From positions 51,957 to 115,956 of the forward strand of contig CACWSG010000001.1 in assembly GCA_902763535.1 (NCBI GenBank): a DNA stretch of 64,000 nt. The letters are read 5' to 3'. This document shows, in pieces, positions 18,083-58,122 of the stretch. Numbering within the stretch: position 1 is the stretch's first letter; each line of letters starts with the position of its first letter. The notes under the pieces were generated by a model. That model had not been told where the DNA came from, did not search any database, and worked only from the letters and a program-made list of their open reading frames with translations. The translations under genes were made by a program, and so were the position numbers. The stretch comes from an uncultured Pseudomonadota bacterium (GTDB lineage: Bacteria > Pseudomonadota > Alphaproteobacteria > RF32 > CAG-239).

Positions 18083-18194
18083 AATGTTTTATGTGCACAC
18101 TTATAAACATAAAAAAAATAACTTGCAAGCATTTTTTTCATAAAAAAACCTTATTTATGCTTTCAATCGCACAAATAAGGTTTTTTCTTCCAAC

Positions 18195-38563: not shown

Positions 38564-39271
38564 TTATTTTTCAGACCCCCTTTTTTGTTGTTGTACTTTG
38601 CGACTTATCATTTTGACAACTCGTCTTTTGCGGAAAATTCCCTTAACTTGTAATTTATCGGCCAACCAATCTCGTGAAATACGATTAGCTTTCAGTCGAT
38701 CCAATATAAATTCCGGCCAACGCATCCATTCATAAGGAGAACTGACCAAGCACTCAACTATCGTGTTGTGATAAGAATTGCGCGCCAGCACATCTTTCAG
38801 ATTACACCCGCTGCCCAAATCATCGACCAAAAACTCTTCTTGGTTAAAGGGAAGAATTTTTATCAATGTTCTTGTTGCATTATAATCCGAAGAATTGTCG
38901 TGAACAACACACCAAGTTGCATTTCTTTTGACGAATTCAACCATGACTTTTACAAGCATCTTGTCTTGATTAGCCTGCCACCCCATCCAAGACGGATATT
39001 GAGATGATGATCCGAGTTCGTTTTTTATGCAAGCATAAACGAGTTCAAGTAATTTAGTCGTTTGAACTTCATCAATCTCATGCAAATCACGAACATTTTT
39101 CATAATGGCAAAAAACGCCATTTTTTTATCATCATCACATGAAACCACATCAGAAAAATGATTAATGATAATGGCAAACAAATCTAAAGCAGCCGCCTCA
39201 TTGGCAGAATTGTCATTTGTATAAGCCAGCAAAGCTGTTCGAAGTTTTTTGTAATCTTCTTTCATAAGCAT
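38564..39271 (-). CDS. Hypothetical protein (235 aa)
   Basis: Long ORF with no recognisable motif. Last gene before tRNA-Glu(TTC). Confidence 0.4.
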   Translation of the reverse strand: MLMKEDYKKLRTALLAYTNDNSANEAAALDLFAIIINHFSDVVSCDDDKKMAFFAIMKNVRDLHEIDEVQTTKLLELVYACIKNELGSSSQYPSWMGWQANQDKMLVKVMVEFVKRNATWCVVHDNSSDYNATRTLIKILPFNQEEFLVDDLGSGCNLKDVLARNSYHNTIVECLVSSPYEWMRWPEFILDRLKANRISRDWLADKLQVKGIFRKRRVVKMISRKVQQQKRGSEK

Positions 39272-39407
39272 AAAAATTTATTCATAATATAATTCGTGGC
39301 GAGTTTATATGGGTTAAACTGCTTTGTCAAGAAAGCAAACAAAAATTTTAAAAAAACTCTTGACCTATAAAAATTTTACTTGTATATAGCATAAGTCATC
39401 ATTTGAT

Positions 39408-39482
39408 GGTCCCATCGTCTAATGGTTAGGACATCACCCTTTCACGGTGGTAATATGGGTTCGAATCCCGTTGGGATCACCA
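39408..39482 (+). tRNA. tRNA-Glu (anticodon TTC); integration site of the downstream island
   Basis: GGTCCCATCGTCTAATGGTTAGGACATCACCCTTTCACGGTGGTAATATGGGTTCGAATCCCGTTGGGATCACCA. Anticodon loop CT-TTC-AC. A Rho-independent terminator follows at 39483-39520. Confidence 0.9.
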
Positions 39483-40990
39483 ATCGCAACACCCTCGATT
39501 TTCGGGGGTGTTTTTTTGTTTAAAGAATCTATCAAATCAAAAGGTTTTCTAAGGTTATAAGAGATTTTCCTATCCTTCATTTGCAAGTTCGAAAGTAAAA
39601 GTTTCAAAATCGCTCTTTTGGTCTCTACTTTCGAACTTTTGAAAATTTGGTAGGCATTATTCCCCAATGAAAGTATTGTTGATATTGCGATAGAGAAGTT
39701 TTTATCAGCCTCGGTCAATAAAGCAGACTTTCCCTCAAGTTCGTATTGTTCTTGTTTAACGTCTTCATTCATATCCCGATATTCTTCGGGCGTAATATGA
39801 CCTTCAAGCAGTAATGACCGCAATCGTTTAATCTTGTCTTGGCAATTGTCATATTTCTGACGAATTGCTCGCACTTCCTTATTATGAGCCTCATTTTGTT
39901 TATTGATGATTTTTTCCATATCAGCCTTAAGATATGGCATAATTTCTTGTGGAACGTGCAAATTCTTTAACTCACCTTCTATTGCCTCTAATGCAACATT
40001 TTCATTAATTTGAGGGTTTTCACAATTGCCTTTGAAATGCGAACACTTCAAATAGATATACTCCTTTCCGCTTGGTTTTGTTTTTTTATAGCTGCTGATA
40101 GTACAGCCACATACGCCGCAAGTCATAAGCCCTCTGAAAATAAAAGGCTCTTCAGTCGCCTTAAACGGTATTTTTTCTTCTGGTTTACGACCGTGCATAA
40201 TATCTTGGCAAGTTTGAAACAATGCAGGAGCAATGAACGTTTCATATTGATGCTTAAATACATTCTCCCTGTATATCATTTCCCCTATGTAAAATTTGTT
40301 GTTCAAAATACGATGAACTGCACTGGTATTTAATGGTTTACCGTTGTATTTACTCGTCAAACCCCATTCTTTACATTGTTTTACCATATCTTTTAATGAA
40401 TATAAGCCTGTTGCATAGCGTTCAAACAGCTTTTGTATAATTGGCGCTCGTTCATTATCAACAATAACATCAGCTTTACCATCTGGTTTTCTAACATTAA
40501 AATATCCTAAAGGAGCTCTATACATACAAAAACCGTGTTCGGCTTGATGATTCATACCACTAACAACGTTATCTCGCAAAGAAAGAACATAGTTTTGTGC
40601 CATAACGACATTTAAGCCTAAAATCGTTAAATCACCAGCTTTTGAATTTTTATCAAGCACCAAATTCTCTTGCACTAAGTGAAGTTCTAATTGACCGCTC
40701 TTACGCATTTCATCAATCATTGTATAGTTTTTGAAGTTACGCATTAAGCGGTCAGTTTTCAAACAAACCAGAGCTATACCACCACGTTGTTTCTTACAAA
40801 AAGCCAATATCTCCATAAAGTGCTTGCGTTCACCACGAGTGGAACTTTCAACCAGTTCAGCATCTTTTATAATATTTAAGCCTTTTCGTTCGCAGTATTG
40901 CTTCAACACTTCTTGCTGATTTTGCAACGAGTAGCCCTCTTGCGATTGCATAGTAGTCGATACACGACGTAATAAAACAGCATTTTTCAT
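39434..40990 (-). CDS. Large serine recombinase (integrase)
   Basis: N-terminal resolvase catalytic domain (VLLRRVSTTMQSQEGYSLQNQ…, catalytic Ser in RVST). Recombinase domain, Cys-containing zinc-ribbon region (CGVCGCT…CSHFKGNC) and coiled-coil. The last ~16 codons are antisense tRNA-Glu sequence. Confidence 0.85.
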   Translation of the reverse strand: MKNAVLLRRVSTTMQSQEGYSLQNQQEVLKQYCERKGLNIIKDAELVESSTRGERKHFMEILAFCKKQRGGIALVCLKTDRLMRNFKNYTMIDEMRKSGQLELHLVQENLVLDKNSKAGDLTILGLNVVMAQNYVLSLRDNVVSGMNHQAEHGFCMYRAPLGYFNVRKPDGKADVIVDNERAPIIQKLFERYATGLYSLKDMVKQCKEWGLTSKYNGKPLNTSAVHRILNNKFYIGEMIYRENVFKHQYETFIAPALFQTCQDIMHGRKPEEKIPFKATEEPFIFRGLMTCGVCGCTISSYKKTKPSGKEYIYLKCSHFKGNCENPQINENVALEAIEGELKNLHVPQEIMPYLKADMEKIINKQNEAHNKEVRAIRQKYDNCQDKIKRLRSLLLEGHITPEEYRDMNEDVKQEQYELEGKSALLTEADKNFSIAISTILSLGNNAYQIFKSSKVETKRAILKLLLSNLQMKDRKISYNLRKPFDLIDSLNKKTPPKIEGVAIGDPNGIRTHITTVKG

Positions 40991-41353
40991 TACTAATTAT
41001 CCTTATTATTAAAAGTATCATATCATACAATTTTAGACAAAAACAAGCAAATTATTTAAGACTAAACATTTTTAATAATGATTAGTTTTCTAATAAAAAT
41101 CTTACCAAAAACCCTTAGTTACAAATAATTTCCCAACCAAAAACCTCTTTTACATAATTTCAATACAAGCCAATTGGTGGTTTGTCAGCAAAATGCCTGT
41201 AAGCATTTTTGTCCAAACAATGATAAATGAAAAAGTTGGAAATTGTAAAATCGTGGTATCCGAATGAAACATTGTCTGATGATGATGCTTCAAGAATATA
41301 TGAACGATTATTGCAACTTTTTCTACTTTTTTACAATGAGGACAATCTGACTA

Positions 41354-42184
41354 ATGAAAGAGAGGTTACTAATGAGTCAGAAAAAAAATAAAATTTATAA
41401 AGAAGCTGAAAATCAATTGAATGAAATGCAAAAGGCATTCATCGAATTTGATAAAAGCTATATTCTTCCCAGAAATCACTTGAATTCAGCCCTCATTGGT
41501 TGTTATCAAGCTTCAACGGAATGGGAGGATAAGTTCATAGAAGAATACTGTGAACAAAACAACATCAAATATATGAAGAAGAAACGCTACAAAAATATAG
41601 TGATGCTAGCTATGAATGTTAGCGATGACTGCGATGAAAGGACAAAAGCTCGTGTTAGAACTTATGTTCGTATCTTAAAAAAATTTAAGCAGCTAAATTA
41701 TGATGTTGAAACAGCAAAAGAGCAACTTGAAGAATTCGGTACTGACTATTTTGCTAATCCAAGAAAAAAGAAGGAAAAATCGGAAGAAACTTCAAAGCCG
41801 CAACAGCTTGAGTTTGATTTCGGAACTTCTTCAAAAAATACTTCGAATGAAGAAGACGATGATGATAGCGAAGCTGATGCAGAGGAAATAAGCGATGATG
41901 ATTCCGAAGAAGATAAAGACGAATGCGATTTTGCAGATGAAGATGATGATGAAAACTATGAAGGAAAAAATCGCTTTCGTGATTATCACATTCCAGCTTC
42001 TGTAAAACAAGACAAACAATCTTCTAAAACTTTTTCAGAAGAACTTATTGACCTTTGTAACAAGTATGACTTTGAGGATGAAAACTTTGTCCTTTGGATA
42101 TGTGAGGATAAAGTCCGAATGAGTACTGATAAAAAACTCATTAATCGCTTGGAAAAACAAAATTATGAGTTCGAAGACTTATAG
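41354..42184 (+). CDS. Hypothetical protein with poly-acidic low-complexity region
   Basis: 276 aa with a 60-aa D/E-rich segment (EEDDDDSEADAEEISDDDSEEDKDECDFADEDDDE). Confidence 0.45.
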   Translation: MKERLLMSQKKNKIYKEAENQLNEMQKAFIEFDKSYILPRNHLNSALIGCYQASTEWEDKFIEEYCEQNNIKYMKKKRYKNIVMLAMNVSDDCDERTKARVRTYVRILKKFKQLNYDVETAKEQLEEFGTDYFANPRKKKEKSEETSKPQQLEFDFGTSSKNTSNEEDDDDSEADAEEISDDDSEEDKDECDFADEDDDENYEGKNRFRDYHIPASVKQDKQSSKTFSEELIDLCNKYDFEDENFVLWICEDKVRMSTDKKLINRLEKQNYEFEDL

Positions 42185-42300
42185 TTTATCTTTTGATAAG
42201 GGGGTACAGCAGTATCCCCTTATTTGCAAAACGTTGTTCAACAACGTTTTTACATCACCCCAAAAACTGCACAAATGTATACAACCATATTTAGTCATTA

Positions 42301-43065
42301 ATGCAGTTTATATTAAGGACAACTACTATGACTAACTTCGCAGATAAATTCGAACATAACGCAGTATTACAGTTAAGGAAATTAAATAGAGCTATTGATT
42401 TATATTGCAAGGATATCTTTAGAAAAAATAAACTAATAAGATATGTAAGAAGCGATAATGGATACGGTATGATGCAGCCTATGGCTTTATATAACTTTTC
42501 AGAAATAGCATTTACTCACCTAGAGCCAATTATTGGTGTTGAAAATATTTCAATGTTTACTATAGCCGTTGATACTTTCAATTTTGGGAAAGACAATTGG
42601 GATTTCAATTATCCATTATTTCGTAAAGAAATCAAAAAAATACTAAAAGGTTATGACTACATTGCTAATGTGGCTTTAGATGAATTTCCAAGAGGACGTT
42701 ACTTTGATGAAGGGATATTAATGACACCGCATATACACGGCATATTTTTCAGACCGTTAACTCGTTGGGAAAAAGGTAAAATATCCATAAAAATAAAAAA
42801 ACATTTTCCAGAATATCGAATAAGACCTTTTGTTGTCAGAGAAAAGTTTGATTTAAAATCTGCAATACATTATTCTTTCAAGGCATTATATGGCGGTAAA
42901 ACCACTTATTCTGGTACGTGCGGAAAAAATATTGAAACACCATATAGGAACCTCTTTATAAATTTTTTGCACCTTAAAGCCCTCAAAATATACGATTGTG
43001 CTTTTGCTGGTGGTAAAGGCATTGAAGTGTTAAATAATATTATCAGCGATATTAAAACTAACTAA
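42301..43065 (+). CDS. HUH-superfamily replication initiator (Rep)-like protein
   Basis: HUH motif TPHIHGIFF and downstream Tyr motif IHYSFKALYGGK (YxxK). 254 aa. Confidence 0.5.
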   Translation: MQFILRTTTMTNFADKFEHNAVLQLRKLNRAIDLYCKDIFRKNKLIRYVRSDNGYGMMQPMALYNFSEIAFTHLEPIIGVENISMFTIAVDTFNFGKDNWDFNYPLFRKEIKKILKGYDYIANVALDEFPRGRYFDEGILMTPHIHGIFFRPLTRWEKGKISIKIKKHFPEYRIRPFVVREKFDLKSAIHYSFKALYGGKTTYSGTCGKNIETPYRNLFINFLHLKALKIYDCAFAGGKGIEVLNNIISDIKTN

Positions 43066-43612
43066 CACAACTTAAATAATTATAAACAGTCCTTCGTGAA
43101 ACATTAAATTGTTTGGCGATGGTGGTTATAGGGGTACGATTATTAACCAAGGCTTTTATTTCTTCGGCTTGTTCATTGGTTAGTTTACGTTGCCCACCTT
43201 TATATTTACCTTTGAGTTTAGCCAAAGCAATTCCCTCACGTTGACGCTCCAAGATTAAGTTGCGCTCAAGCTCTGCTACAGCTCCCAACATCGTCATCAT
43301 CATTTTTTGATACGGATCTTGTTTATCGGGGGCAAATATCAAATTTTCTTTATGAAATACAACTTTAGCTCCTTTATTGGTTATTTCTTCGACCAAGTTC
43401 AGCAAATCATTTGTGTTGCGTGCTAATCTATCCATCGAGTGGACATTAACCACATCACCGGCACGAATATTAAGTAACATAGCTTGAAGTTCTGGGCGGT
43501 TAGTGTTTTTACCACTGATTTTTTCGACATATTCCCTATCGCAAGCAACATTTAACAGTTGGCGCTCGGTATTCTGGTCGGTTGTGGAAACTCTCTTGTA
43601 ATTAAACAACAT
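43058..43612 (-). CDS. Small serine recombinase (resolvase/invertase family) with C-terminal HTH
   Basis: MLFNYKRVSTTDQNTERQ… (catalytic Ser). DRLARNTNDLLNLVEEITNKGAKVVF. C-terminal HTH IAKQFNVSRRTVYNYL. 184 aa. Confidence 0.85.
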   Translation of the reverse strand: MLFNYKRVSTTDQNTERQLLNVACDREYVEKISGKNTNRPELQAMLLNIRAGDVVNVHSMDRLARNTNDLLNLVEEITNKGAKVVFHKENLIFAPDKQDPYQKMMMTMLGAVAELERNLILERQREGIALAKLKGKYKGGQRKLTNEQAEEIKALVNNRTPITTIAKQFNVSRRTVYNYLSCVS

Positions 43613-43731
43613 TTTAAGCTCCTATATGTGAAATTTACATTTATAACTTTGATTTACAGGTGTGTAATTAATGCGGTTTTCGACTTTGTTTACACACTTT
43701 TAAGGCTGCGCAATCACGGTATACTTTATTT

Positions 43732-44253
43732 TTACACCGCCTCAGCCTTGACAACTATCGTGTCCTCAACTGTCAGGTCATAAATCCTTGGCATATTGCT
43801 CGAACGTAGAAATCGCAAACCGTCAGAATCATTTAAATAAATTCTGTCTGTGGTTATTCGGTCAATCACGCTCCAATGGTCGTGTAGACCTTGTATGCCT
43901 ATAATCACGGCTGTATTCGGCTGTTTTGTTAGTGTCGATATTTTTTTGATGGCTGTTGTCGTGCGAGTTTTATCGTTGAATGGCCTATAATGCGTTAACC
44001 TGATATTGTCCAATTGTGATTGAATAATACCAAGATAATCCTCAACTTGTTCAACTTCTGAGCCTTCTTTATGGACTGCGTTTAATTTACGGTGTTTATA
44101 TAAGTATGCAATTATTTCTTGAAACCAAAATTTTACGTATTTCTTTTTAAAATTCTCCAAACCTTCTGTCGATAACAATGTCGCATTAATTGAGCTATAC
44201 ACACCACAGAGATTGTCGAGATTGCCTTGCGAAAAGTAAATATTCTTCATCAA
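43732..44253 (-). CDS. Stand-alone C39-like (papain-fold, clan CA) peptidase-domain protein
   Basis: Q-x7-CG (QGNLDNLCGVYSSINA), His motif GLHDHWSVI and downstream Asp. Paralogous to 56398..56982. Confidence 0.5.
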   Translation of the reverse strand: MMKNIYFSQGNLDNLCGVYSSINATLLSTEGLENFKKKYVKFWFQEIIAYLYKHRKLNAVHKEGSEVEQVEDYLGIIQSQLDNIRLTHYRPFNDKTRTTTAIKKISTLTKQPNTAVIIGIQGLHDHWSVIDRITTDRIYLNDSDGLRFLRSSNMPRIYDLTVEDTIVVKAEAV

Positions 44254-44573
44254 TATTCATCTCCTCTCATTATGGTTAGCACTCTGTTGGTAACGCTCTC
44301 ATCGGATATGTCGGGACTGAGGCATAAGTAGTCTAGGTCGTAGTAATCAATCTTCCAGAAGTATGTTGCCCCTTTGAAGTCTATAGCCCCGAAGTCGTGT
44401 TCTTGATTAGGATCATTATTTGCAGTGAATTTATCAAAAGTGCGAACTCGGTTTAACAGCTCAGCACGGTCATTGTCGTTTAACTCGCAAACACCAACTG
44501 TCAACATAACTTTGCCACCAGTGAATGTCTTGCGAAGTTTGTCGTTCAATAGTCGTATTTTACCAACACTCAT
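44250..44573 (-). CDS. Small hypothetical protein with candidate double-glycine leader
   Basis: 107 aa, N-terminus MSVGKIRLLNDKLRKTFTGG-KVM…. The Gly-Gly sits at residues 19-20 with hydrophobics at -4, -12 and -15. Translationally coupled (ATGA overlap) to the C39-like gene. Confidence 0.4.
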   Translation of the reverse strand: MSVGKIRLLNDKLRKTFTGGKVMLTVGVCELNDNDRAELLNRVRTFDKFTANNDPNQEHDFGAIDFKGATYFWKIDYYDLDYLCLSPDISDESVTNRVLTIMRGDEY

Positions 44574-44894
44574 TTTTTACTCCTTTAAAATAAAAAAAGA
44601 GCCAAGGTATTTAACCAAGGCTCTCAAAATTTGCGGATTAAGGCAGATGGTATGTCCCACAAAACCTATTTCGACATTAGAATTGTATGACATACCACCT
44701 CACTTTCACACCGACAAAATTAAACCTTATCTGCTCTGGTGAAAAAGCAGATTATATAAGGCTTATGTGTCAGTGATTTTGTATTCGAAATAAACGAACC
44801 GATTCGTTTTTGAATACAACTAATTATAACACAAAAATAAAGGAAAATCAAGTACTTAATTGACAAAACATCATTTTTTGACGCATTTTTTAGT

Positions 44895-45551
44895 TTATTT
44901 CAAATGGTTTAGTACCTCTTTTTTATGTTTATTGAAATAACTGATTATTTCTTGAGCAAATTGTCTGAATTGTTTTATATCTTCATCGCTTATTGTATCG
45001 GAATCATTTATTGAAACAGTATGTTGACTATCATTATAAGTGTCACAATCACAATTTTTAACAGCTATTAATTTCGATGTTTCTTGTATAATCGCAAAAT
45101 CGTCATTGTCCTGATTATTGATTGAGCTAAAAACACCTAGCTGTTTGTTTTGCCAATACATCACAACAGAAAAATTAATTTCAAAATGTTTATTTATTTC
45201 ATAAGATGCTGTAAATAATGAATAATCGCTTATATCATTTGCTAAATCAAAACAGTTATCTAAATCTGTAATATAAATTATATTATGATTTTCAATATCT
45301 AAGTCATTTACCAGATCTTCCCAAACGGCTTCCCATATTTGACGACACATAATCCAGCCGTCCGTTTTAAACTTCTGCAAAAACACCTTAGCTTGATAAA
45401 AGTTTTGATATTCATCAAACGAAATTTTGCTAGGTACTTCGGTATTGTCGAACATAGCTAAAGCTTTTATCGTATTATCTTTGCAAACTTTTTTTAAATT
45501 TTCAGGTATTTGTATCATTTTTAACACTCCCAATATAAAATTTTGTTCCAC
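44895..45551 (-). CDS. Hypothetical protein (218 aa), acidic
   Basis: Long ORF, overlaps the upstream gene by 31 nt (operon). No recognisable motif. Confidence 0.4.
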   Translation of the reverse strand: MEQNFILGVLKMIQIPENLKKVCKDNTIKALAMFDNTEVPSKISFDEYQNFYQAKVFLQKFKTDGWIMCRQIWEAVWEDLVNDLDIENHNIIYITDLDNCFDLANDISDYSLFTASYEINKHFEINFSVVMYWQNKQLGVFSSINNQDNDDFAIIQETSKLIAVKNCDCDTYNDSQHTVSINDSDTISDEDIKQFRQFAQEIISYFNKHKKEVLNHLK

Positions 45552-46306
45552 AATGAAGACCTGTAACGTTTCATATCTTCATCTTCAACCAGTCCGTCTA
45601 GGTTCTGTTCCCATAATTGCATAACATCACACCAGAGTATATTTTTCCAAGATTCTTTTTTTTCTTTTTTTGCATCAATATCTTTTTGAATATTTTTAAT
45701 AGTGATAACGACGAAGGTCAGCTCTTTACCTTTGGCAATTTTCTTCATCTGTTCCTCATAAACGCTTAATTCATTACCATCAATTACGGCATCAAATTTT
45801 ACTTCAATACATAAAGCTCCGCTATTCCATATAATTGTATTATCAATACGTTTTCGCCTTTTTTTCTTATCTTTGACATTTTTAGTAAGAACTTCGCAAG
45901 CACAATAATAACCATCTTTGGGAAGTTCTTTATTTTGATTTAATAATTTAAAAATAGCCTGTAAAAATGCTTTGCAGCTTTGTTGATTTTCGAGTAAAAA
46001 ATTTGATAATGCTTTTGTAAATTGTGGTTCTTTCAAATTTAAATAGCGATATAAAGGCTTATAACGGAATGAATGATGCGCTGTATAATTACCTAAAAAT
46101 GGAAAATCACTTAATAGATCTTCATATGTTTGATAACCGATTTTAGCATACTGCTTTGCTATATAATCGTGATAGTCTTGCAAAAACGATTTGACTTTTA
46201 AGTGATCCCCATAAAATGCTTGAATATATGGCAGACTTTGATGATATACATCATTACAATATACTTCGGATAATTGTGAAAAATATTTTTCTTTACTCAT
46301 TATCAT
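45521..46306 (-). CDS. Hypothetical protein with PD-(D/E)xK-like nuclease motif
   Basis: …IDNTIIWNSGALCIEVKFD… (D…E-V-K), embedded in predicted beta strands. 261 aa. Confidence 0.4.
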   Translation of the reverse strand: MIMSKEKYFSQLSEVYCNDVYHQSLPYIQAFYGDHLKVKSFLQDYHDYIAKQYAKIGYQTYEDLLSDFPFLGNYTAHHSFRYKPLYRYLNLKEPQFTKALSNFLLENQQSCKAFLQAIFKLLNQNKELPKDGYYCACEVLTKNVKDKKKRRKRIDNTIIWNSGALCIEVKFDAVIDGNELSVYEEQMKKIAKGKELTFVVITIKNIQKDIDAKKEKKESWKNILWCDVMQLWEQNLDGLVEDEDMKRYRSSLWNKILYWEC

Positions 46307-46330
46307 ACCAATTCTCCGAATATATCAATT

Positions 46331-46600
46331 AAAAAACCACCTTTGAATAAGGTGGTCGGAGAGTTCGTAAATCATATTAGGTAAAATGATCCTTTTAGCC
46401 TTTAGAAAGTAGATTCTTGGACATACGCTAAAAGCTCCCCGACCATTGTCGGGGATAGCTGTTGCTTCAAAAATATTGCAACTGACGATGTTATCCGACA
46501 CCGTACCTAATAAGAGCTTACGACGGCTCCGCACCTTATATAAGGTACTAAACATAGGTTGCCCTATGCCTAATAAAAACATTAAGCCTACATAGGTTAA
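46331..46600. repeat. Copy B of the ~250-bp intergenic repeat family, located inside the island
   Basis: See copy A at 14835-15100. Hairpin ccacctttgaataaggtgg, then ggagagtt and the gctccccgaccattgtcgggg core. Confidence 0.75.
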
Positions 46601-46697
46601 ATTACAATTAAAATCACTTTATTTTCAGAAAATTATTTTGCTTTTTTGGTAAAGCATAATATTATGAAAAAAAATACTAACAGTAGGATTAAAGATA

Positions 46698-47360
46698 ATG
46701 GATTTAGACAAACACGCAACCCAATATTTGGATATTATGAATAAACAGGCTCAGGAATTATCTTGTTATGAACAGCAATTTGATAATGCTGATTCTCATA
46801 TGCTGCAACACGTAATTGACTATTCGAAAATGGCTATCAAATCACTTTTTTTATTAAATGGAACGGCAGCCATTTCTGTATTTACTTTATTTACATCTTC
46901 ATCACTAAATATTCAAAAAGTTTTTCAGCCATTACTTGATGCGGTTACAATATTTTCTTGGGGTGCTGTTATTTCAGTTATATGTATTTTTTTAGCCTAT
47001 GCGGCGCAAAAATTTTATCAAGATGAGTGTGCTTGTATAGGAAGAGAGAAAATATTATATATCAAATTAAGACAATCTGAAGAAAAACGGATATTTTTTG
47101 CAAAGGAAAAAGTATTGAATAAAGAAATACCAGTTGAAAAAGATATAGAAGCCTTAGAAAATGAGGCAGAGGATACTAAAAAACAGAGGGATTTAGAAGA
47201 AAAAAAGGAAAAAAGATATGGCAAACTTGGAGATATTTTTACAGGTATCGCTATAATAGGAGTCATCTGTTCATTGTGTTTATTTATATTCGGCGTCTAT
47301 AAAGTAAAAAACGAATTTGTTCAATATACTAAGGACACAATTACTGAACAAAATAAGTAA
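46698..47360 (+). CDS. Membrane protein with two TM helices and charged coiled-coil tail
   Basis: TMs AISVFTLFTSS and GAVISVICIFLAYAA, a K/E-rich helical segment, and a C-terminal TM IAIIGVICSLCLFIFGV. Confidence 0.45.
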   Translation: MDLDKHATQYLDIMNKQAQELSCYEQQFDNADSHMLQHVIDYSKMAIKSLFLLNGTAAISVFTLFTSSSLNIQKVFQPLLDAVTIFSWGAVISVICIFLAYAAQKFYQDECACIGREKILYIKLRQSEEKRIFFAKEKVLNKEIPVEKDIEALENEAEDTKKQRDLEEKKEKRYGKLGDIFTGIAIIGVICSLCLFIFGVYKVKNEFVQYTKDTITEQNK

Positions 47361-47409
47361 AAGTAATTTTGTATAAGTGATTACCAATTTCGAAGAAATC
47401 ATCTGTATA

Positions 47410-49899
47410 TTACGATATTTCATTCTTATTTTGATTTTTTGCTTCTTTTTCTATGGCTTTTTCTACTTTTTCAAATCCACTACAACCATCTTTAATAGCT
47501 TCATTCCAGTTAAAATATGCAACCCCTATATTTACCTTATTCCAAATATCTGTTAGATAATCTCTGAAAAGAATAGATTTACGGTATCTATCTTCAATTT
47601 TAAATGACTGAATTAGAGGAAATATTTCATCTCGAGTTATTGTATCCAAAATAGGCGTATCAATCGAAACCGCATCTAAATATGAAAACTCACCTATCCA
47701 CTTATATAAATGATATACACCTATACTTGTAACTCTAAATCCTTCTGGAATATCTCCACATAACACACCTGTTTTTCTTTCAAATTCTACCCTTCCAACA
47801 GATTCTATCAATTTTTTATTAGTAAGTCTTCTAATAGAATATTCAATTTGAGGAATTGTGTAACCATATTTTTGCATTTCGGTTATAATGTCTATAAATT
47901 TAACAAAACTATCGGTATCTTTTGTTGAATATTTACTTTCGAGATATGCGACAATTAGCGATGACAAAAAATGCTCTTTAATATCAGGAGATGAAATCTC
48001 AAATAAATTCATTGCTAGTGAAGTATCTTCATTAAAATAAGAGTAATCTCCTAAAATAGCTGCTTTTGAAAATTCGTGCAAAGGAATTAAATAATCATCT
48101 TCTTTACTAAAGGATATGATTTTATCACTATCTACATTAGTATTACTTATAAATTTTGCAATAAAATCCATTACTAATCGAACATTTCCACCTGTAATGT
48201 TTGATAATATTTCTCTTATTTCTTTATTATTTTTTATAGAAAATAAAAGGGATTTAATAAATACGACTATATCGCTCAAATCTAAACTAATATTTTCTAA
48301 AGGATGTATCTTTGTATTGCCTTGTGCTATTTTTAACGCAAATTCAAGACGTTTAGCCACAACTGTTTCTATCCTTGGTGGAAGTATAGTAAATACACGT
48401 TGAGTATATCCAGACAAAGAGCGCCCTCTCATTTTTGATTGATAAAAGGTTTCTGGGCGTAACGCAATAAAAGTCATCGCTTTCCATCCAGAAGCAAGTT
48501 CTTGAGCTATAACAAAAGCTTCATCCTGTATGTCTGTAGTCCTTTGATCCGCATTATCAATAGTAATGATAATTTGTTTTTTATGAGCTTTGGCTATATG
48601 CTCTATTGCTTTACACAAATGGCTAGATTTATCTGAGGTTAATTTATCAAGATATGAGATAAGTTTTTCATTATATAATTTTGGATTCTGCTGCAATAAA
48701 TCTTTATAAATGCCATTTTCAAATCTCTTTATTTCAGAATGATAAATACCTTTTACAAAATTTGAAGAATAAATATCTATTTTGTGATTGTCCAAAAGTT
48801 GCTTTTCTATATCTAGCAATATAAAAGATTTTAAATCATTCGATAAAGTACCACTATCCCCTAAATCAATATATAAATACAGTGATTTTTCAAACTCTTC
48901 TTTAGCATTTAAATATTTTAAACTTTTAAGAAAGCTTGTCTTTCCAACTCCTACATCTCCTATTACTACAATAGGTCTCTTTGATAAAGCCTCAGCGTAT
49001 ATCTTATCAGAGAGAAGACCTTGTTTTTTATTTTTTTGCATTAAGCATTCTATATTCGTATCGCTATCCTGCGGAAACAAGTGAGCATAACGTTTGGATA
49101 AAATATCTTTACTAATAAGGGCATCTTGAGATAAGGCTCCACTTTGGCAATAGCATTCCTGAAAAAATTCTTCTTCAATTTCTGGAGAAGTTATCAAATC
49201 TTGTAGTAATAATTCAGATAAAATTTCTAAACTTTTTTGATTGTCATTTTTATATCTTATATCTCGATAATTTAGAATATATTGAGATAGTTTACTAGGT
49301 AAAAATTTTCTTTCACTTGCTATAAAAAAGTCATATAGATTTCTATCTTTAATTCCGTAAATTGAAAGGTATTGCCATACAAGCTGGAAATTTGTTAATA
49401 AATCATCTTTGTTTCTTATAATAAATGCATCCCCATCAAGAGGAGGAATACCATCTCGTCGTGATGCTAAAAAGGCTATAATTTGGTATGAATTTATAAT
49501 AACTGCAAACTCGACACCTCGTTTAGAACAATAATCAAATACTTGATTAACGGCATCTTTAGCGGCAGAACTTGTTTTTATAATTGATTGTATAGAACAG
49601 ATATATTTCTCTCTTCCGTTTGATGGAAAATCAAATTGTATACTATCTTTTTTAGCTTCAACAATACAACATTTAGGATGTCCTAGTTCATAATCGGTAT
49701 AGTCTCCATTGTGATATTTTTCAGTTTCAATATTTTCTTTATTCCAGCCTAGACAATATACCAAAAAATCATCTATAAACTGAAACCTAGTATCTTCTTC
49801 TGTCCAATTCCAAGAAGCTTTAGTGCTTTCTTCGACTAAGGCTTTTAGGTTCTCTAGACCTATCTTCATATCGTTCACATTACTTATAAAATTTGCCAC
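47410..49899 (-). CDS. Fusion protein: N-terminal HsdR-N/Mrr-like PD-(D/E)xK nuclease domain plus P-loop NTPase (STAND/AAA-like), with a long C-terminal region
   Basis: Nuclease motif …DYTDYELGHPKCCIVEAKK…. Walker A IVVIGDVGVGKTSFLK. Walker B-like QIIITIDNADQ. 829 aa and extremely AT-rich. Directly downstream, on the same strand, of the m5C methyltransferase. Confidence 0.55.
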   Translation of the reverse strand: MANFISNVNDMKIGLENLKALVEESTKASWNWTEEDTRFQFIDDFLVYCLGWNKENIETEKYHNGDYTDYELGHPKCCIVEAKKDSIQFDFPSNGREKYICSIQSIIKTSSAAKDAVNQVFDYCSKRGVEFAVIINSYQIIAFLASRRDGIPPLDGDAFIIRNKDDLLTNFQLVWQYLSIYGIKDRNLYDFFIASERKFLPSKLSQYILNYRDIRYKNDNQKSLEILSELLLQDLITSPEIEEEFFQECYCQSGALSQDALISKDILSKRYAHLFPQDSDTNIECLMQKNKKQGLLSDKIYAEALSKRPIVVIGDVGVGKTSFLKSLKYLNAKEEFEKSLYLYIDLGDSGTLSNDLKSFILLDIEKQLLDNHKIDIYSSNFVKGIYHSEIKRFENGIYKDLLQQNPKLYNEKLISYLDKLTSDKSSHLCKAIEHIAKAHKKQIIITIDNADQRTTDIQDEAFVIAQELASGWKAMTFIALRPETFYQSKMRGRSLSGYTQRVFTILPPRIETVVAKRLEFALKIAQGNTKIHPLENISLDLSDIVVFIKSLLFSIKNNKEIREILSNITGGNVRLVMDFIAKFISNTNVDSDKIISFSKEDDYLIPLHEFSKAAILGDYSYFNEDTSLAMNLFEISSPDIKEHFLSSLIVAYLESKYSTKDTDSFVKFIDIITEMQKYGYTIPQIEYSIRRLTNKKLIESVGRVEFERKTGVLCGDIPEGFRVTSIGVYHLYKWIGEFSYLDAVSIDTPILDTITRDEIFPLIQSFKIEDRYRKSILFRDYLTDIWNKVNIGVAYFNWNEAIKDGCSGFEKVEKAIEKEAKNQNKNEIS

Positions 49900-50056
49900 T
49901 TATTGTCTCCATATAAAACCTAACTGCAAAATATGACATACAAATTAACATAAACATCTAAACAATCAAGAATAAAAACAATTCGCATCATTTTGACGTA
50001 GCTTGGAAATTGGACAGATTAACAATTGCACAAGTACTAAATTTTATACCTGAGTG

Positions 50057-51289
50057 TTACTCTGCAGCCATTTCTAGTTGCAGTCCATTTGTCATTTTTT
50101 CATTTAAACAATCCAACATTTCAATTAAGCAACACCCTATATGATAACTTAAATTAACCGGAACAGCATTACCTATTTGTTTATACTGTGATGACATTGT
50201 TCCTTGAAATTTCCAATTATCAGGAAATGATTGAATTCTTGCATATTCACGAATGGTAAGTGGTCTCGTTTCACTTGGATGACAGCGTTCAGTTTGCTTT
50301 TGAGCTGGTGCGCAAGTCAACGTTAAACTCGGTTCATCCCAAGATAAACGTCTTGCCATACCAGTTTTGCCACCAGATAAATGAAAACTGCCTTTCATAT
50401 ATTCTTTTTGAACATCAATCGGTAAATCTCGCCAATACCCCCCCTCTGGAACCAATGACAATATTTCAGCTTTACGTTTAGGATAGCTTTGACCTTCTGA
50501 TTTAGGACAATCTTTTAACGCAGCTCTTAGTGAAACTGTATAATTTTTCTCTGTTGGAAAGATAAAAGGAATATTCAAATCATTACGAATTGCAATAATT
50601 ATTAATCTTTCTCTTTTTTGCGGCACATCTAAATACTGTGCTCTCAAAACCTTATATTGCACATTATAACCAATTTCTTTCAAGGCATTAACCATTGTTT
50701 TAAGGGTTCTGCCATTATCGTGTTTCAACAATCCTTTAACATTTTCACCAACAGCAATTTTGGGCATTGTTTCTTTAACGCAGCGAGCAAATTCAAAAAA
50801 CAATGTTCCTCTGGTATCTTCAAATCCCATACTTTTACCAGCATAACTGAAAGCTTGACAAGGAAATCCTGCTTGAACTATATCGACTTTACCTTTCCAA
50901 GGAGAAAAATCTACATTATGGACATCTTCGTGAATTATGTTAGTTCCTTTAGGAAAATTATGTTGCAAAGTTGCGACACAATCTTTATCTATTTCGTTTA
51001 GTAAGATGTGTCGAATACCTGCATTTTCAAACCCAAGAGCTGTTCCTCCAGCTCCTGCAAATAGTTCTATCGCTGTATAAGGAGACTTAAGTTTGGATTC
51101 CAACACTTTGAACTCTTCATCGGATTTATTATTTAATTTATCCAATAAGGCAAAAACTTCGTCATCATTGAACATACGATGATTTTTATCAGAACGTTCT
51201 GCCTTTATTAATCCTTTTTTTTCCCAACGTCTAATTGTATCAATAGATAAATTAAGTTTTTTACTTACTTCGTGAATAGATAACCACAT
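50057..51289 (-). CDS. DNA (cytosine-5)-methyltransferase with N-terminal MerR-like HTH
   Basis: Motif I ELFAGAGGTALGF, IV GFPCQAFSYAGK, VI ENVKGLL, VIII QKRERLIIIA, X QIGNAVPV. N-terminus MWLSIHEVSKKLNLSIDTIRRWEKKGLI is an HTH. Confidence 0.9.
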   Translation of the reverse strand: MWLSIHEVSKKLNLSIDTIRRWEKKGLIKAERSDKNHRMFNDDEVFALLDKLNNKSDEEFKVLESKLKSPYTAIELFAGAGGTALGFENAGIRHILLNEIDKDCVATLQHNFPKGTNIIHEDVHNVDFSPWKGKVDIVQAGFPCQAFSYAGKSMGFEDTRGTLFFEFARCVKETMPKIAVGENVKGLLKHDNGRTLKTMVNALKEIGYNVQYKVLRAQYLDVPQKRERLIIIAIRNDLNIPFIFPTEKNYTVSLRAALKDCPKSEGQSYPKRKAEILSLVPEGGYWRDLPIDVQKEYMKGSFHLSGGKTGMARRLSWDEPSLTLTCAPAQKQTERCHPSETRPLTIREYARIQSFPDNWKFQGTMSSQYKQIGNAVPVNLSYHIGCCLIEMLDCLNEKMTNGLQLEMAAE

Positions 51290-51376
51290 TATTAATCTCC
51301 TTAATTAACTGAATACAATATAAAATAACCCCTGCATATATGCAAGGGTTATTTTTAAGATATTAAATCAATATAA

Positions 51377-52087
51377 TTAATTAACTGATTCTTCTATTTC
51401 TTGAGCTAAACTGTCTATTGCATCTTCAATAATAGCTGTACCATCAATCTCATTCGCAACTTCGGCAATATTATTAATCAATGCTTCATAAAAGTCTTCA
51501 TCACCTGTCAATCTATACCAGAATTCTTTACCTGCATAGACGGGATTAGACTTATTTATGGTTTTATACATTGTTGATAAATCTTCATTACTACCATAAA
51601 AGACCCCAACAACACAGTCAACATCAGGATTGAAATCTCTTAAACCATTTGTTCGTGCTAAATTTCGGATTGCTTGGAAATGGTTTAATATTGTTGTAAT
51701 ATCATCCTTATTTATAGTATTTGGACCAGCCTTAATCTGGCAATATTTGTGTCTTCCATCAACTTGATCTGTGAATTCAATATCAATACCAGATGTTGTT
51801 GAGGCAAAACCATTTAAAACGTCTTTGCAAAAAGATTGCATCTGAGTACCAAAAATAGTATTTATCGATGTTCCTAAAACTCGAGGATAAATCAAAGCCT
51901 TTGCAATGTTTTTACTATCAGAATTGCCAAAAGCAAAATTTGCTAAATATTTCTGTAAAAAAGGATTAGGATTGAATTCCTTTAAGTGTTTAGCTTCTTC
52001 AGTTTTCTTTTTATGATTCTCAACAATATTGTCTCTAAAAAATTGTTTGGCTTTTTGCAGTATAAGTTGTTTTTCCTCTGGGGTCAT
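51377..52087 (-). CDS. Putative type II restriction endonuclease, cognate of the adjacent m5C MTase
   Basis: 236 aa from internal Met with GGAGA RBS. Candidate PD…(D/E)xK: GIDIEFTDQVDGRHKYCQIK. Position and orientation are typical of an R-M pair. Confidence 0.45.
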   Translation of the reverse strand: MTPEEKQLILQKAKQFFRDNIVENHKKKTEEAKHLKEFNPNPFLQKYLANFAFGNSDSKNIAKALIYPRVLGTSINTIFGTQMQSFCKDVLNGFASTTSGIDIEFTDQVDGRHKYCQIKAGPNTINKDDITTILNHFQAIRNLARTNGLRDFNPDVDCVVGVFYGSNEDLSTMYKTINKSNPVYAGKEFWYRLTGDEDFYEALINNIAEVANEIDGTAIIEDAIDSLAQEIEESVN

Positions 52088-52246
52088 TCTTATTCTCCGT
52101 ATAACAAACACGAGTAACATTTTATCTTAATTACCCAGAAAAGCAAGTTATAATTGGCTTTATTCTACATAATTAAACAGCAAAAAACCAAATTAATCTC
52201 TATATAATTGTAAAATGTATTTAACAAAATCCATAAATAAGAAATA

Positions 52247-52927
52247 TTATTTGTAGCTATTCAAGTCTATTTTATATTTTGAACAAAAATCGTAGATATT
52301 TTTAACTGTATAACACTTAATTCCTGTTTTTAAAGCAAATTCTTTTGCTCTATCATCATAACCATTCTTTACAAAATATGTTAAAATATAAGGATGCACA
52401 ATTGTTTTGTTTTCATCTGAAATATTCTTTATTACCCCTCCAACAAATTGTTTCATAGAGTTAAGACCTATACATTTTTTATCAAAACACTTGACTTGTG
52501 AATAAACGTCTATAATACCTAATATATCATCCTCCAATTTTCCTTTAATATCAATTGTATTAGCATCTTCTTGAGAATTATCAGCAACTTCTTCTACTTT
52601 AATTTTTTCACTTTTATTTAAAATATCACAACAGAGTTTTGCATATGATTTTGGACTTAATAGGTTTAATGCCTTACAAAATTCCATATATTCTTTTTTT
52701 CCTTTTATAACTACAAAATTTTCTTTATCATCAAACTCTACTATTTCATCGTCCTGTTCTCTAAAGAAATTTTCTAATATTCCTAAATGGTTATTAATCT
52801 CATCTTCTGAAATACTATCATCTATTTCTTGAACTACATTTGTAATTATCTTAGCAAAAGATCCAGATGTAGGATTACTACAAGCCATTTTATATATTTC
52901 GTTAAATGAAGGAAATTTGTTAACCAT
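52247..52927 (-). CDS. Hypothetical protein (226 aa) co-transcribed with the ParB-like gene
   Basis: Start codon abuts the upstream gene's stop (52927/52928). No recognisable domain. Several Cys pairs. Confidence 0.4.
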   Translation of the reverse strand: MVNKFPSFNEIYKMACSNPTSGSFAKIITNVVQEIDDSISEDEINNHLGILENFFREQDDEIVEFDDKENFVVIKGKKEYMEFCKALNLLSPKSYAKLCCDILNKSEKIKVEEVADNSQEDANTIDIKGKLEDDILGIIDVYSQVKCFDKKCIGLNSMKQFVGGVIKNISDENKTIVHPYILTYFVKNGYDDRAKEFALKTGIKCYTVKNIYDFCSKYKIDLNSYK

Positions 52928-54064: not shown

Positions 54065-54446
54065 ATTTATTATTCAATACTGAGTAGAATAAAGCTCTTA
54101 CTGTACAAAAGCAAGCAAAATATATAAAAAATAAGAATAGCTTCAAATGAACATCAAAACTAAAAGAAACATTCAAAACGCAGGAAGTCGAAGGCAAATT
54201 GTTTCAAAAATGCAACTATTATCTAAAAATTTTGAAACTATTATTTACCTTGGATTTTTTTACCATACAATGCGGTTGTGCTGTTTTATGCATATTTTAT
54301 CATTAAAATGCTCGATTCGCATTGTATGAATAGAATATCGACAGTAAATAACATTTTTCATCGTAAATTATCTTTATGTAAGTTGTAACCATCTGATTTT
54401 ACACATTAAAATATGCTGCAAAAAAACATTTTCAGGCGCTTTTTAC

Positions 54447-54475
54447 TTGCTTATACTAGGAAAATATGGTATAAT
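54447..54475 (+). promoter_or_regulatory. Near-consensus sigma70 promoter (TTGCTT-17-TATAAT) driving a ~150-nt leader or small RNA
   Basis: -35 at 54447-54452, spacer of 17, -10 TATAAT at 54470-54475. Confidence 0.55.
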
Positions 54476-54595
54476 AAAATTGTATTTAGGCGGTAACCGT
54501 AGGTTAATTAAAAATGCTTAAATATAGGTTTGATGATAAAATCCTTCCGTGTGAACTAAGGGTCTAGCCAAACGTTAAGAACTCAACCCACATTC

Positions 54596-54676
54596 ACCTC
54601 AACAGGTGAAATGTGGATTTTGTTTTTTAACGAGCATCTGCATTTCACCAAAGATATGAAAGGAAACTGAAATGCA
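54596..54676 (+). promoter_or_regulatory. Leader with intrinsic terminator plus alternative, mutually exclusive pairings that sequester the start codon of the 54672 gene
   Basis: A ccacattcacc / A' ggtgaaatgtgg + T7 (terminator). B ctgcatttcacc can pair with A' or with B' tgaaatgcag. B' contains the ATG at 54672. Confidence 0.45.
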
Positions 54677-55427: not shown

Positions 55428-55653
55428 ACTATGGTTATTGTCAAGGAATTTTCGAATATTAAAATAAGTCTGCATAGTTTCCGTATAGTACTCCTCTGAG
55501 AGTAAAAGTTCGAGATTCGTTGCGTTATTGTCACCAATTGCAACACTATTGATTTTTGAGGGAATTTTCCTGTTTAATTAATAAAAATAACATCTTGACT
55601 TCAAGATATTATTGTGCAACTTTTTGAATAGCTCAATATCAAGGAGAATTTTT

Positions 55654-56367: not shown

Positions 56368-56397
56368 TTTTTACCATAACAGCCCGCAAATTGGCTG

Positions 56398-56982
56398 TTA
56401 TGACAACTGTTTGGCACTTATGAAAAAAATTCCTTCTTTCATAAGCTGGGTTTCTTTTGATGTTTTCTTTTTTCTTCTTGGTTTCCATGCCAAATTTGCG
56501 AAGTTTATCTTCAAAAAATGGTATGAATCTACCAAATAACTGACCGGAAATTTAACTTTTTGGAACACTGTCCAATGATCACCGGTTTTGGGTGTATCAA
56601 CTCTGACAATACAGGAATGATCTTTCCGCAACATCCATTGTCGCAAAAGCTGAAAAGTTTTCCTGAAAGTTAAGTTTTTCCAATCCGGCATGGCTGTAAG
56701 TTTTTTCCATTGTATTAAAATATGATAATTTTCTTTCATATAATCCCGCGCTAAAAGCAAATACTTTTCTTCCAACACGCAGGTAGTGCCGTGATTAACA
56801 ACTTGCTCAATCAAATTGTTATCAATAAGATATTTCATAAAACATCTGAAAAAGGCTTCTTTTTCGCTGCTTGTCATAACCTTAAAAGATGAACAGGCAT
56901 AGCCGACTGCATTTATAACGGCATAAATTCCACAAAAATAATCCAAAGTACCTTGATACGAAATCTGAAATTTTGCAGGCAT
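56398..56982 (-). CDS. Stand-alone C39-like papain-fold peptidase-domain protein (paralog of 43732..44253)
   Basis: QGTLDYFCGIYAVINA and GDHWTVF…YLVDS align with QGNLDNLCGVYSSINA and HDHWSVI…YLNDS in the other copy. Lies 21 bp downstream of guaC on the same strand. Confidence 0.5.
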   Translation of the reverse strand: MPAKFQISYQGTLDYFCGIYAVINAVGYACSSFKVMTSSEKEAFFRCFMKYLIDNNLIEQVVNHGTTCVLEEKYLLLARDYMKENYHILIQWKKLTAMPDWKNLTFRKTFQLLRQWMLRKDHSCIVRVDTPKTGDHWTVFQKVKFPVSYLVDSYHFLKINFANLAWKPRRKKKTSKETQLMKEGIFFISAKQLS

Positions 56983-57003
56983 AATACCTTTTTCCTCTCT
57001 TAG

Positions 57004-58122
57004 CTAACTTTTACCAAAAACTTCATTTAATTGGCGATTGACACGGTAGAATGTTGTGCATTTAGGAATATCTTTCAGTCTGCGCGCACCGATATAAGCC
57101 ATTGTTGAGCGAATTCCACCCAATATCTCTTGAATCACATCTTCAATACTGCCCTTATAAGCCACCTCAACCACTTTTCCCTCCGAAGCACGATAACAAG
57201 CCATACCTCCGAAATGCCTTTCTTGTGCTAATTGTGATGACATCCCGTAAAACAGTTTATATTTCTCTTTCTTTTGAAGCAAACAAGCTTCGCCGGATTC
57301 TTCAGACACAACATTCGTTTGAATTGTCTTTTCAATCAACTCACCGGCCGCTTCATCAGTACCGGCAAACATTCCCCCCAACATCACAAAATCAGCCCCT
57401 GCGCCATAGGCTTTGGCCACATCTCCGGCGCAAGTACAACCGCCATCGGCACAAATAAATCCGTTAACACCGTGTGCGGCATCGGAACATTCCAAAATTG
57501 CTGATAACTGCGGACGTCCGACCCCGGTCAATTTTCGGGTTGTACAAACCGAACCCGGACCGATACCAACCTTGACAACATCAGCACCGCTTAAAATCAA
57601 ATCTTGGGTCATATCGCCGGTAACAATATTACCAACCATAATTAGTATGTCAGGAAACTTATCTCTTACTTCTTTTACAAAATCGGTCAATTTGGGAATG
57701 TAACCATTAGCAATATCTATGCATAATTTATCTATCTTAAAACTTTTATCTGCCAGCAGCGCAAAAAGCCGCTCCTTATCATCTTTCAAACCGGTTGAAA
57801 TAAAGGTATAAGCATTATGAGCACTCTCTTCTTTTTCATAATTTTGGGCAACATACTGATAGTTTTGGCCGTCACTAAAATCGTAATGTTTATGCAAACA
57901 GGTTATGGCTTGATATTTTTGCAAAACATCATTTACCGCAAAAGTTCCGGTTGTCGCCATATTAGCCGCCATAATTCCGCAAGACATAAGATGATGCGGA
58001 TAATACTTAAACTTATATTCTCTGATAACATCGGCTTCTTTGCGCGAATTAAGCGTTGTTCTTTTAGGCTGAAACAAAACATCGCAAAAATCTAATTCTA
58101 TACTATCCTTTATTTGTGTCAT
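57004..58122 (-). CDS. guaC: GMP reductase
   Basis: Collinear with enterobacterial GuaC over the full length: FKDVLxxPKR, IIAANM, CIDxANGY, active-site GIGPGSVCTTR, GADFVMLGGM, FYGMSS, ILGG(L/I)RS. 372 aa. Confidence 0.85.
   Translation of the reverse strand: MTQIKDSIELDFCDVLFQPKRTTLNSRKEADVIREYKFKYYPHHLMSCGIMAANMATTGTFAVNDVLQKYQAITCLHKHYDFSDGQNYQYVAQNYEKEESAHNAYTFISTGLKDDKERLFALLADKSFKIDKLCIDIANGYIPKLTDFVKEVRDKFPDILIMVGNIVTGDMTQDLILSGADVVKVGIGPGSVCTTRKLTGVGRPQLSAILECSDAAHGVNGFICADGGCTCAGDVAKAYGAGADFVMLGGMFAGTDEAAGELIEKTIQTNVVSEESGEACLLQKKEKYKLFYGMSSQLAQERHFGGMACYRASEGKVVEVAYKGSIEDVIQEILGGIRSTMAYIGARRLKDIPKCTTFYRVNRQLNEVFGKS

Follow-up and report, generated by a model that had tools for sequence, protein, structure and literature searches.

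A DUF3768 gene and a predicted papain-fold hydrolase gene beside a small recombinase gene: a recurrent cassette on the mobile DNA of Alphaproteobacteria

A stretch of 64,000 nucleotides from an uncultured alphaproteobacterium of the CAG-239 lineage (contig CACWSG010000001.1, positions 51,957 to 115,956; hereafter the window) carries three consecutive genes on its minus strand. They encode a protein of 107 amino acids (aa) of the Pfam family DUF3768 (44250..44573), a predicted papain-fold Cys-His-Asp hydrolase of 172 aa (43732..44250), for which the working label PEP (peptidase gene) is used here, and a small serine recombinase of the resolvase/invertase type (43058..43612; 184 aa). Together these genes constitute a recurrent mobile-DNA cassette in Alphaproteobacteria, which was found on islands, on at least one plasmid and on a phage-labelled contig. 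The cassette is uncharacterised and built of known kinds of parts, namely a new papain-fold hydrolase family, a DUF family whose predicted structure lacks solved relatives and an undescribed structured leader RNA. An initial annotation of the window had interpreted the first two genes as a double-glycine (GG) leader peptide and its C39-like protease. Our own preference, held with somewhat less than even confidence, is for a module that stabilises or controls the mobile element, stands beside its small recombinase and resembles a toxin-antitoxin (TA) pair.

The open reading frames at 43732-44253(-) and 44250-44573(-) were present as initially annotated, as was a second hydrolase frame at 56398-56982(-). 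The PEP frame comprises 173 aa when read from a TTG codon, which is directly followed by an ATG at 44250-44248. Since homologs begin with MKN, the true start is probably this ATG at 44250, giving 172 aa. The junction of the two genes reads GAT GAA TAT TGA TG AAG, so that the DUF3768 stop codon overlaps the PEP ATG by one base (TGATG); depending on the start codon chosen, the overlap measures 1 to 4 nt. An AGGAG lies ~10 nt upstream of the ATG. Through this overlap and the Shine-Dalgarno (SD) sequence the two genes are translationally coupled, as had been proposed, and the spacing at other loci ranged from overlaps to gaps of 0-50 nt. The recombinase gene follows on the same strand 119 nt downstream of PEP, and no terminator-like site was found between them. 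Its product matched the Pfam families Resolvase and HTH_7 and showed a weak NCBIfam match to a Mpi-type invertase.

Among close homologs of PEP (58-98% identity), the gene order was always DUF3768, PEP, small serine recombinase, and the recombinase lay directly 3' of PEP in 17 related loci. The DUF3768-PEP pair also occurred with divergent hydrolases: at locus L008 (30% identity to PEP), on a plasmid of Paracoccus marcusii (23%), on a human-gut contig labelled 'Bacteriophage sp.' (29%) and with the divergent family members P0055, P0100, P0090 and P0163, a fusion of 529 aa. A tblastn search of plasmids with PEP and P0055 retrieved one Paracoccus plasmid only. In 26 of the 30 loci with enough flanking sequence, the pair was accompanied by a same-strand gene for a small site-specific recombinase, either a resolvase-type serine recombinase downstream or a tyrosine recombinase of ~190 aa upstream or downstream. 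Four gene orders were distinguished: serine recombinase downstream, tyrosine recombinase upstream, tyrosine recombinase downstream, and the arrangement PEP-tyrosine recombinase-X-DUF3768 seen with P0090. Counted by hydrolase clusters (50% identity), a recombinase was present in 11 of 13 DUF3768-linked clusters, with locus L115 as one more, and in none of the six clusters without DUF3768. One copy of the cassette was situated among HEPN/MNT, ParE/Phd and HigB genes, and one adjoined AbiE.

Viewed from the side of DUF3768, a PEP gene was located downstream in 18 of the 80 metagenomic loci whose DUF3768 genes are most similar to that of the window, and PEP-linked copies were confined to a few clades. 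Elsewhere the slot 3' of DUF3768 was occupied by a double AAA+ ATPase, by RhuM/Fic, by a DUF736-like gene or by genes without identity. In one clade, represented by locus L067, a double AAA+ (Cdc48-like) ATPase of 702 aa (4306-6414) overlaps the DUF3768 stop codon in the place of PEP, so that the partners encoded 3' of DUF3768 would seem to be exchangeable.

The AlphaFold model of PEP (pLDDT 87.9, pTM 0.86) places Cys16, the single cysteine of the protein and its conserved catalytic-position residue, near the N-terminus of a helix (residues 13-28). His126 begins a strand (126-133), and a further strand (137-140) is followed by Asp142. In Foldseek searches against the PDB the top matches were exclusively papain-fold enzymes. 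The best of them was the phytochelatin-synthase-like Alr0975 (E 1.6e-4, TM 0.58-0.65, probability 1.00), followed by the C39 domain of PCAT1 (7n87; E 2e-3, TM 0.48-0.54, probability 1.00); a Josephin-type deubiquitinase (DUB), AvrPphB, SpeB, IdeS and UfSP were matched at lower rank. In the predicted model PEP thus has the traits of a papain-like enzyme of the clan CA type, with the cysteine on a helix N-terminus, histidine and aspartate on the sheet, and similarity to solved members. Sequence-computed properties comprise a pI of 8.6 and neither a signal peptide nor a hydrophobic N-terminus nor a transmembrane-like stretch. PEP is accordingly modelled as a cytoplasmic papain-fold Cys-His-Asp hydrolase.

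The assignment to C39-like peptidases in the initial annotation was borne out for the layout and failed for the family. The catalytic order of C39 domains, with an oxyanion Gln followed by Cys, His and Asp, is present in PEP as Q9, C16, H126 and D142, and PEP shares with ComA, PCAT1 and LahT the papain fold and with ComA the His-x15-Asp spacing. Comparison with C39 and C39-like profiles, the check that had been suggested for this assignment, gave no match at the sequence level: no C39-type Pfam family was detected at E<=1 for PEP or its paralog pepB (described below), nor, at E<=0.01, for any of 100 family members. A hhalign comparison of the PEP family with two verified ComA C39 domains returned a probability of 1.5%, which is not significant; the sole aligned stretch put H126 and D142 of PEP on His96 and Asp112 of ComA. 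PEP further differs from C39 domains by Gln-x6-Cys instead of x5, by a helical insertion of ~60 residues that, in its model, separates the Cys helix from the sheet, and by the lack of an ABC-transporter fusion or neighbour and of a leader-bearing substrate gene. That the protein stands alone was correctly noted at the outset, as no ABC transporter was found near PEP in the window or at any related locus examined. PEP is therefore C39-like in layout, yet not a demonstrable C39 member.

Relations to other cysteine proteases were similarly partial. Alr0975 of Nostoc (MEROPS C83) resembles PEP over ~195 columns, in the Cys-His-Asp triad and in size. The two proteins differ, however, in sequence (14-15% identity), superimpose with an rmsd of 5-6 A and stand in different contexts, PEP being encoded on mobile elements and not with metal or thiol metabolism. 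The spacing between His and Asp is 17 residues in Alr0975 versus 15 in PEP, and the Pfam Phytochelatin profile matched neither PEP nor pepB nor any of 100 family members. The motifs HW[TS]V...DS and Q...D..CG.[YF]...N recall the Ulp1/SENP proteases and DUBs of clan CE, such as RickCE, but their order is permuted: His, Asp, Gln, Cys in clan CE and Gln, Cys, His, Asp in PEP. The match to RickCE (E 0.03) was obtained in two pieces and is not statistically significant.

PEP and pepB are true paralogs of one family, as initially proposed, with 23% identity across 173 residues, the full length of PEP (BLASTP, E 6e-9). They measure 172/173 and 194 aa, against the ~180 aa given before. The Gln/Cys/His/Asp signature attributed to both was recovered, with the spacing corrected from Q-x7-C to Q-x6-C-G ... 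D-H-W-[ST]-V ... D-S. Across 144 family representatives, one per 50%-identity cluster, residues Q9, G10, D13, C16, Y19, N23, G64, H126, W127, D142 and S143 were at least 96% conserved. An exhaustive profile search retrieved representatives of 1,160 clusters, likewise defined at 50% identity, at E<=1e-3 and 385 at 1e-10. Nearly all members are stand-alone proteins of 170-220 aa. Neither PEP nor pepB nor 100 diverse relatives matched a Pfam family, and searches of NCBIfam, PADLOC, PHROGs and PDB sequences with PEP and pepB yielded nothing usable. The PEP family is thus large and described by no curated library. In the fusion proteins P0163 (529 aa; 3001-4590 in loci L113 and L114) and P0169, a Cys-rich N-terminal domain of 340-450 aa, for which no Pfam or PDB match was found, is joined to a C-terminal PEP domain; at L113 and L114 the gene order is still tyrosine recombinase, DUF3768, PEP.

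The 107-aa protein is a full-length member of DUF3768 (PF12599), matched over profile positions 1-83 of 83 with 105.2 bits (cut-off 25; E 1.8e-30). It is acidic (pI 4.9), and in the family the C-terminal E-Y and a large number of charged residues are invariant. Its AlphaFold model is a compact alpha/beta domain with a pLDDT of 96.1. No structural neighbours were found in the PDB (best E 0.43) or in BFVD (best E 0.14), and no mention of DUF3768 or PF12599 was found in the literature, including the supplements of a survey of anti-defence genes in leading regions. The family is not restricted to islands such as the one in the window: Rhizobium phage genomes of ~115 kb (RHEph10, RHph_N1_10 and others) encode DUF3768 without PEP, and DUF3768 is therefore a general mobile-element gene.

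The initial annotation had read the N-terminus of this protein, MSVGKIRLLNDKLRKTFTGG followed by KV, as a GG leader, from which a stand-alone C39-type protease, PEP, would release a toxin or signal by cutting after Gly19-Gly20. Several observations speak for such a reading: the Q/C/H/D layout, the ComA-like His-Asp spacing and the PCAT1 match of PEP, the translational coupling, and hydrophobic residues that can be read at positions -4, -12 and -15 from the GG. Moreover, the GG is found in 28 of 28 PEP-linked DUF3768 copies versus 42 of 51 copies without an adjacent peptidase gene (Fisher p = 0.02, phylogeny not corrected for). The same numbers show that most peptidase-less copies keep the GG, as do plasmid and phage copies. 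The surrounding motif, I-R-x-L-N-D-x-[FL]-R-x-x-[FL]-x-G-G-x-V-x-x-T-x-G, showed the same degree of conservation as the remainder of the protein (37-39 homologs); residues 6-25, GG included, are among the best conserved of the family, with N10, D11, R14, G20 and T25 invariant. Position -7 is an invariant Arg and not hydrophobic. The 87-aa 'mature' part retains >50% identity across Alphaproteobacteria, unlike a bacteriocin. In the AlphaFold model, the N-terminal helix (residues 3-16) is packed into the domain and the GG forms the turn to a strand (21-24), so that a cut after Gly20 would remove an integral helix bearing three invariant polar residues. The model thus presents the 107-aa protein as a complete folded DUF3768 domain whose GG is a conserved internal turn and not the end of a leader.

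The 320 nt upstream of DUF3768 were as conserved as the genes, with 82-84% DNA identity to loci L005 and L006. They contain a promoter-like site at 44823..44851 on the minus strand (TTGATT, 17 nt, TG-n-TATAAT; an extended -10 and agreement with the consensus at 10 of 12 positions), the -10 region of which is conserved in seven loci. Because promoter-like sites were no commoner across the region than in shuffled sequence, it is the position and the conservation of this site that argue for it. Between it and DUF3768, alignment and folding delineated a structured 5' leader of ~240 nt with four hairpins (44574..44816, minus strand). P1 (~44816-44782) contains the palindrome GAATCG[G/A]TTC, almost invariant as DNA (GAATCGATTC); it is followed by P2 (~44775-44709) and by P3 (~44705-44640), which buries an invariant SD-like GAAAGUGAGG..AUG. 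P4 resembles an intrinsic terminator, with a GC stem at 44624-44598 and a U7 run to 44587 that ends ~10 nt before the SD of DUF3768 (AAGGAG, 44585-44580).

The leader was found in 14 loci and was aligned in sets of 7 and 14. Its minimum free energy (MFE) z-scores were -6.7 and -7.5, and none of 200 shuffles was as stable. P1 to P4 all appeared in the own MFE fold of 10 of the 14 copies; those of L028, L029, L032 and L035 lacked P1 and kept P2-P4, and P3 folded alone gave a hairpin in 14 of 14. Seven base pairs showed double changes, and three sequence types differed in their stems with the pairing kept. A scan of 39000-58500 against Rfam 15 (E<=0.1) returned tRNA only and no leader family. By these features the region resembles a leader that regulates the cassette through its terminator, or else a small RNA. 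Within it, a frame of 38 codons (44577-44693, minus strand) begins with the invariant GAAAGUGAGG and AUG. Its coding capacity is doubtful, as the stop position varies (22-66 codons among relatives) and the start is buried in P3. At L029, L032 and L035 the frame runs in frame into DUF3768, which accounts for the 'long' DUF3768 proteins of 145-147 aa in databases. An invertible promoter, considered in view of the invertase-sized recombinases, was dropped, since neither the promoter nor the cassette was seen to be flanked by convincing inverted repeats.

The arrangement of the cassette recalls the TA pairs that adjoin tnpR/res in Tn3-family transposons (PMC7157771). In both cases an overlapping two-gene module stands directly beside a small serine recombinase on a mobile element, and the promoter or palindrome region could be recombinase-controlled. 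As in type II TA systems, two small co-directional genes overlap on mobile DNA, with a small acidic protein encoded upstream of a larger basic one. The copies found near HEPN/MNT, ParE/Phd, HigB and AbiE genes point the same way. Based on these analogies, we tentatively favour the view that DUF3768 and PEP form a TA-like stability or control module of the element. DUF3768, PEP and the recombinase would be expressed as one operon from the promoter-like site. The hydrolase would act on an intracellular protein, most probably DUF3768 or a DUF3768-bound target, and the acidic DUF3768 protein would either restrain the basic enzyme or undergo modification by it. The terminator of the leader would control expression, and the recombinase might do so as well by binding to the P1 palindrome. 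We infer that the pair is not a system for the maturation of a secreted peptide.

Several points weigh against the TA-like module. The frequent solo occurrence of both partners is its main weakness. DUF3768 lacked PEP in 51 of the 79 loci with enough downstream sequence, and 477 PLSDB plasmids carry DUF3768 (247 of them conjugative) versus one with PEP. Conversely, PEP occurs without DUF3768 in six lineages, and pepB stands alone on the chromosome with its catalytic set intact. Obligate co-occurrence as in type II TA systems is thus not observed, and such solo patterns are unexpected for an obligate toxin-antitoxin pair. Unlike the Tn3-associated pairs, DUF3768 and PEP belong to no known TA family, and their recombinase may be of the short tyrosine type. 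Pfam detected no HTH, RHH or similar DNA-binding domain in either protein, PADLOC and PHROGs gave no homology of either to a known toxin, antitoxin or defence protein, and DUF3768 shows a conservation that is uncommon among antitoxins. A clustering of backbone genes, with no common mechanism, may account for the recombinase association. The loci are not independent of one another in their phylogeny, and the figure for DUF3768-only loci, a recombinase nearby in 2 of 28, is a lower bound obtained by phmmer with five queries. Finally, co-transcription of the pair with the recombinase is inferred.

A more specific proposal, possible but on the doubtful side, is that the cassette represents a new kind of mobile-element module for addiction or counter-defence. 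The cysteine hydrolase would act enzymatically on DUF3768 or be gated by it, and in the gut-alphaproteobacterial lineage the module would be switched by an undescribed terminator-containing leader RNA (riboswitch-like or an attenuator).

An anti-defence or host-takeover role is unlikely, though it deserves consideration ahead of the other alternatives. DUF3768 would neutralise a host function on entry of the element, with PEP as an accessory effector, for instance a deconjugating or DUB-like enzyme or a protease of a host defence protein. The acidic nature of DUF3768, the variable slot 3' of it and its spread over the above-mentioned plasmids, Rhizobium phages and integrative islands are in line with this, as are the similarities of PEP to a Josephin-type DUB, UfSP and RickCE. 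These similarities are weak, however (E 0.014-0.06), and DUF3768 does not appear in the supplements of the leading-region survey. An anti-defence role would also leave the tight link to small recombinases and the chromosomal stand-alone paralogs unexplained.

Less probable still is a control of recombination, whereby DUF3768 and PEP would regulate the small recombinase, through directionality, proteolytic activation or cleavage of a repressor as by ImmA on ImmR, and thereby excision, resolution or inversion. The strong association with serine and tyrosine recombinases in four arrangements, both types being of short resolvase/invertase-like size, speaks for it, as do the palindrome at the transcript start and XRE-type helix-turn-helix genes beside PEP at loci L107, L110 and L114. 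Against these stand the missing DNA-binding domain in both proteins, the majority of DUF3768 genes without such recombinases, and the absence of inverted repeats pointing to an invertible segment.

That the two genes share no functional link at all, with PEP hitch-hiking beside DUF3768 as a small-molecule amidase or transferase (for example a glutathione/gamma-glutamyl enzyme like Alr0975, or an acyl-transferase), we regard as improbable. Alr0975 is the best structural match and the chromosomal paralogs are surrounded by genes of metabolism, in many cases with a GNAT acetyltransferase gene in divergent orientation, but the overlapping arrangement with DUF3768 is kept in many lineages at only 23-28% PEP identity, and both the Phytochelatin profile and the His-Asp spacing set PEP apart from Alr0975. 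The leader-peptide reading is rejected as highly improbable, because the GG is conserved within the domain and kept without a peptidase gene, and because no ABC transporter or other exporter is encoded near any locus examined.

The cassette of the window belongs to the backbone of an island at tRNA-Glu, whose cargo includes restriction-modification and other defence-type genes. The low-GC island (GC 26-35%) spans ~16 kb from ~39.4 to ~55.5 kb. One end is marked by a tRNA-Glu(UUC) gene identified by tRNA detection (39408-39482, plus strand), the 3' end of which is overlapped by the gene of a large serine recombinase of 518 aa (39434-40990, minus strand). The backbone of this recombinase, two plus-strand frames without family match (o276, 41354-42184, 276 aa; o254, 42301-43065, 254 aa), the resolvase, PEP and DUF3768 is common to loci L001 and L006. 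Frame o276 contains a very acidic, D/E-rich repeat region at ~41850-41960. In o254 the string PHIHGIFF can be read as resembling a HUH motif; o254 could thus be a rolling-circle Rep or a relaxase, and the island would then be replicative or mobilisable. The cargo comprises a PD-(D/E)XK protein that matched the PADLOC candidate PDC-S26 (45521-46306), an AAA ATPase of 829 aa (47410-49899), an m5C methyltransferase (50057-51289), an EcoO109I-like endonuclease (51377-52120) and a weakly ParB-like protein of 378 aa (52928-54064). Related elements vary in cargo, with Lamassu LmuB, methyltransferases or DUF6119, and their hosts are gut and rumen Alphaproteobacteria known from metagenome-assembled genomes. 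Far from the island, ARAGORN predicted a tRNA-Glu(CUC) at 18007-18082(-), which falls within an open reading frame (17752-18141).

The paralog pepB (56398..56982, minus strand) encodes a basic protein of 194 aa and lies just outside the island, without DUF3768 or recombinase, in the order PAP2 phosphatase, pepB, guaC, methyltransferase. Its position 21 nt downstream of the GMP reductase gene guaC (57004..58122, minus strand; NCBIfam equivalog NF003470, 472.8 bits versus a cut-off of 397) was confirmed. The pepB-guaC order recurred only in one close relative, locus L018 (peptidase match E 5.5e-128, guaC E 9.3e-250), which shares ~88% DNA identity with the window in the nearby tRNA-Glu flank and has merely recombinase fragments between tRNA-Glu and PAP2/pepB. 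The neighbours of pepB-type genes differ at L013/L019, L021 and L009-L016, and distant pepB-type genes adjoin GGDEF-EAL, nitroreductase, GNAT, acyl-CoA synthetase or glycosyltransferase genes, again without DUF3768 or recombinase. A functional link between pepB and guaC was rejected, as relatives show different neighbours; the adjacency is incidental and reflects local synteny. In several genomes (L009-L016, L108, L109) a GNAT acetyltransferase gene is situated immediately upstream of pepB- or 'pepC'-type paralogs in divergent orientation, which may be synteny alone or may hint at a role in acyl transfer or deacylation.

The present analysis removes a tempting but wrong annotation as a bacteriocin leader/C39 pair and defines in its place a large family of minimal papain-fold hydrolases that is missing from the curated libraries and exceeds 1,100 clusters (50% identity). 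It also provides a first handle on DUF3768, which is carried by hundreds of alphaproteobacterial plasmids, by islands and by some phages. Owing to its consistent three-way linkage with a recombinase and to its structured leader, the module lends itself to experiments, and it may bring to light a new strategy, for maintenance or against the host, of the carriers of defence islands among gut and rumen Alphaproteobacteria.

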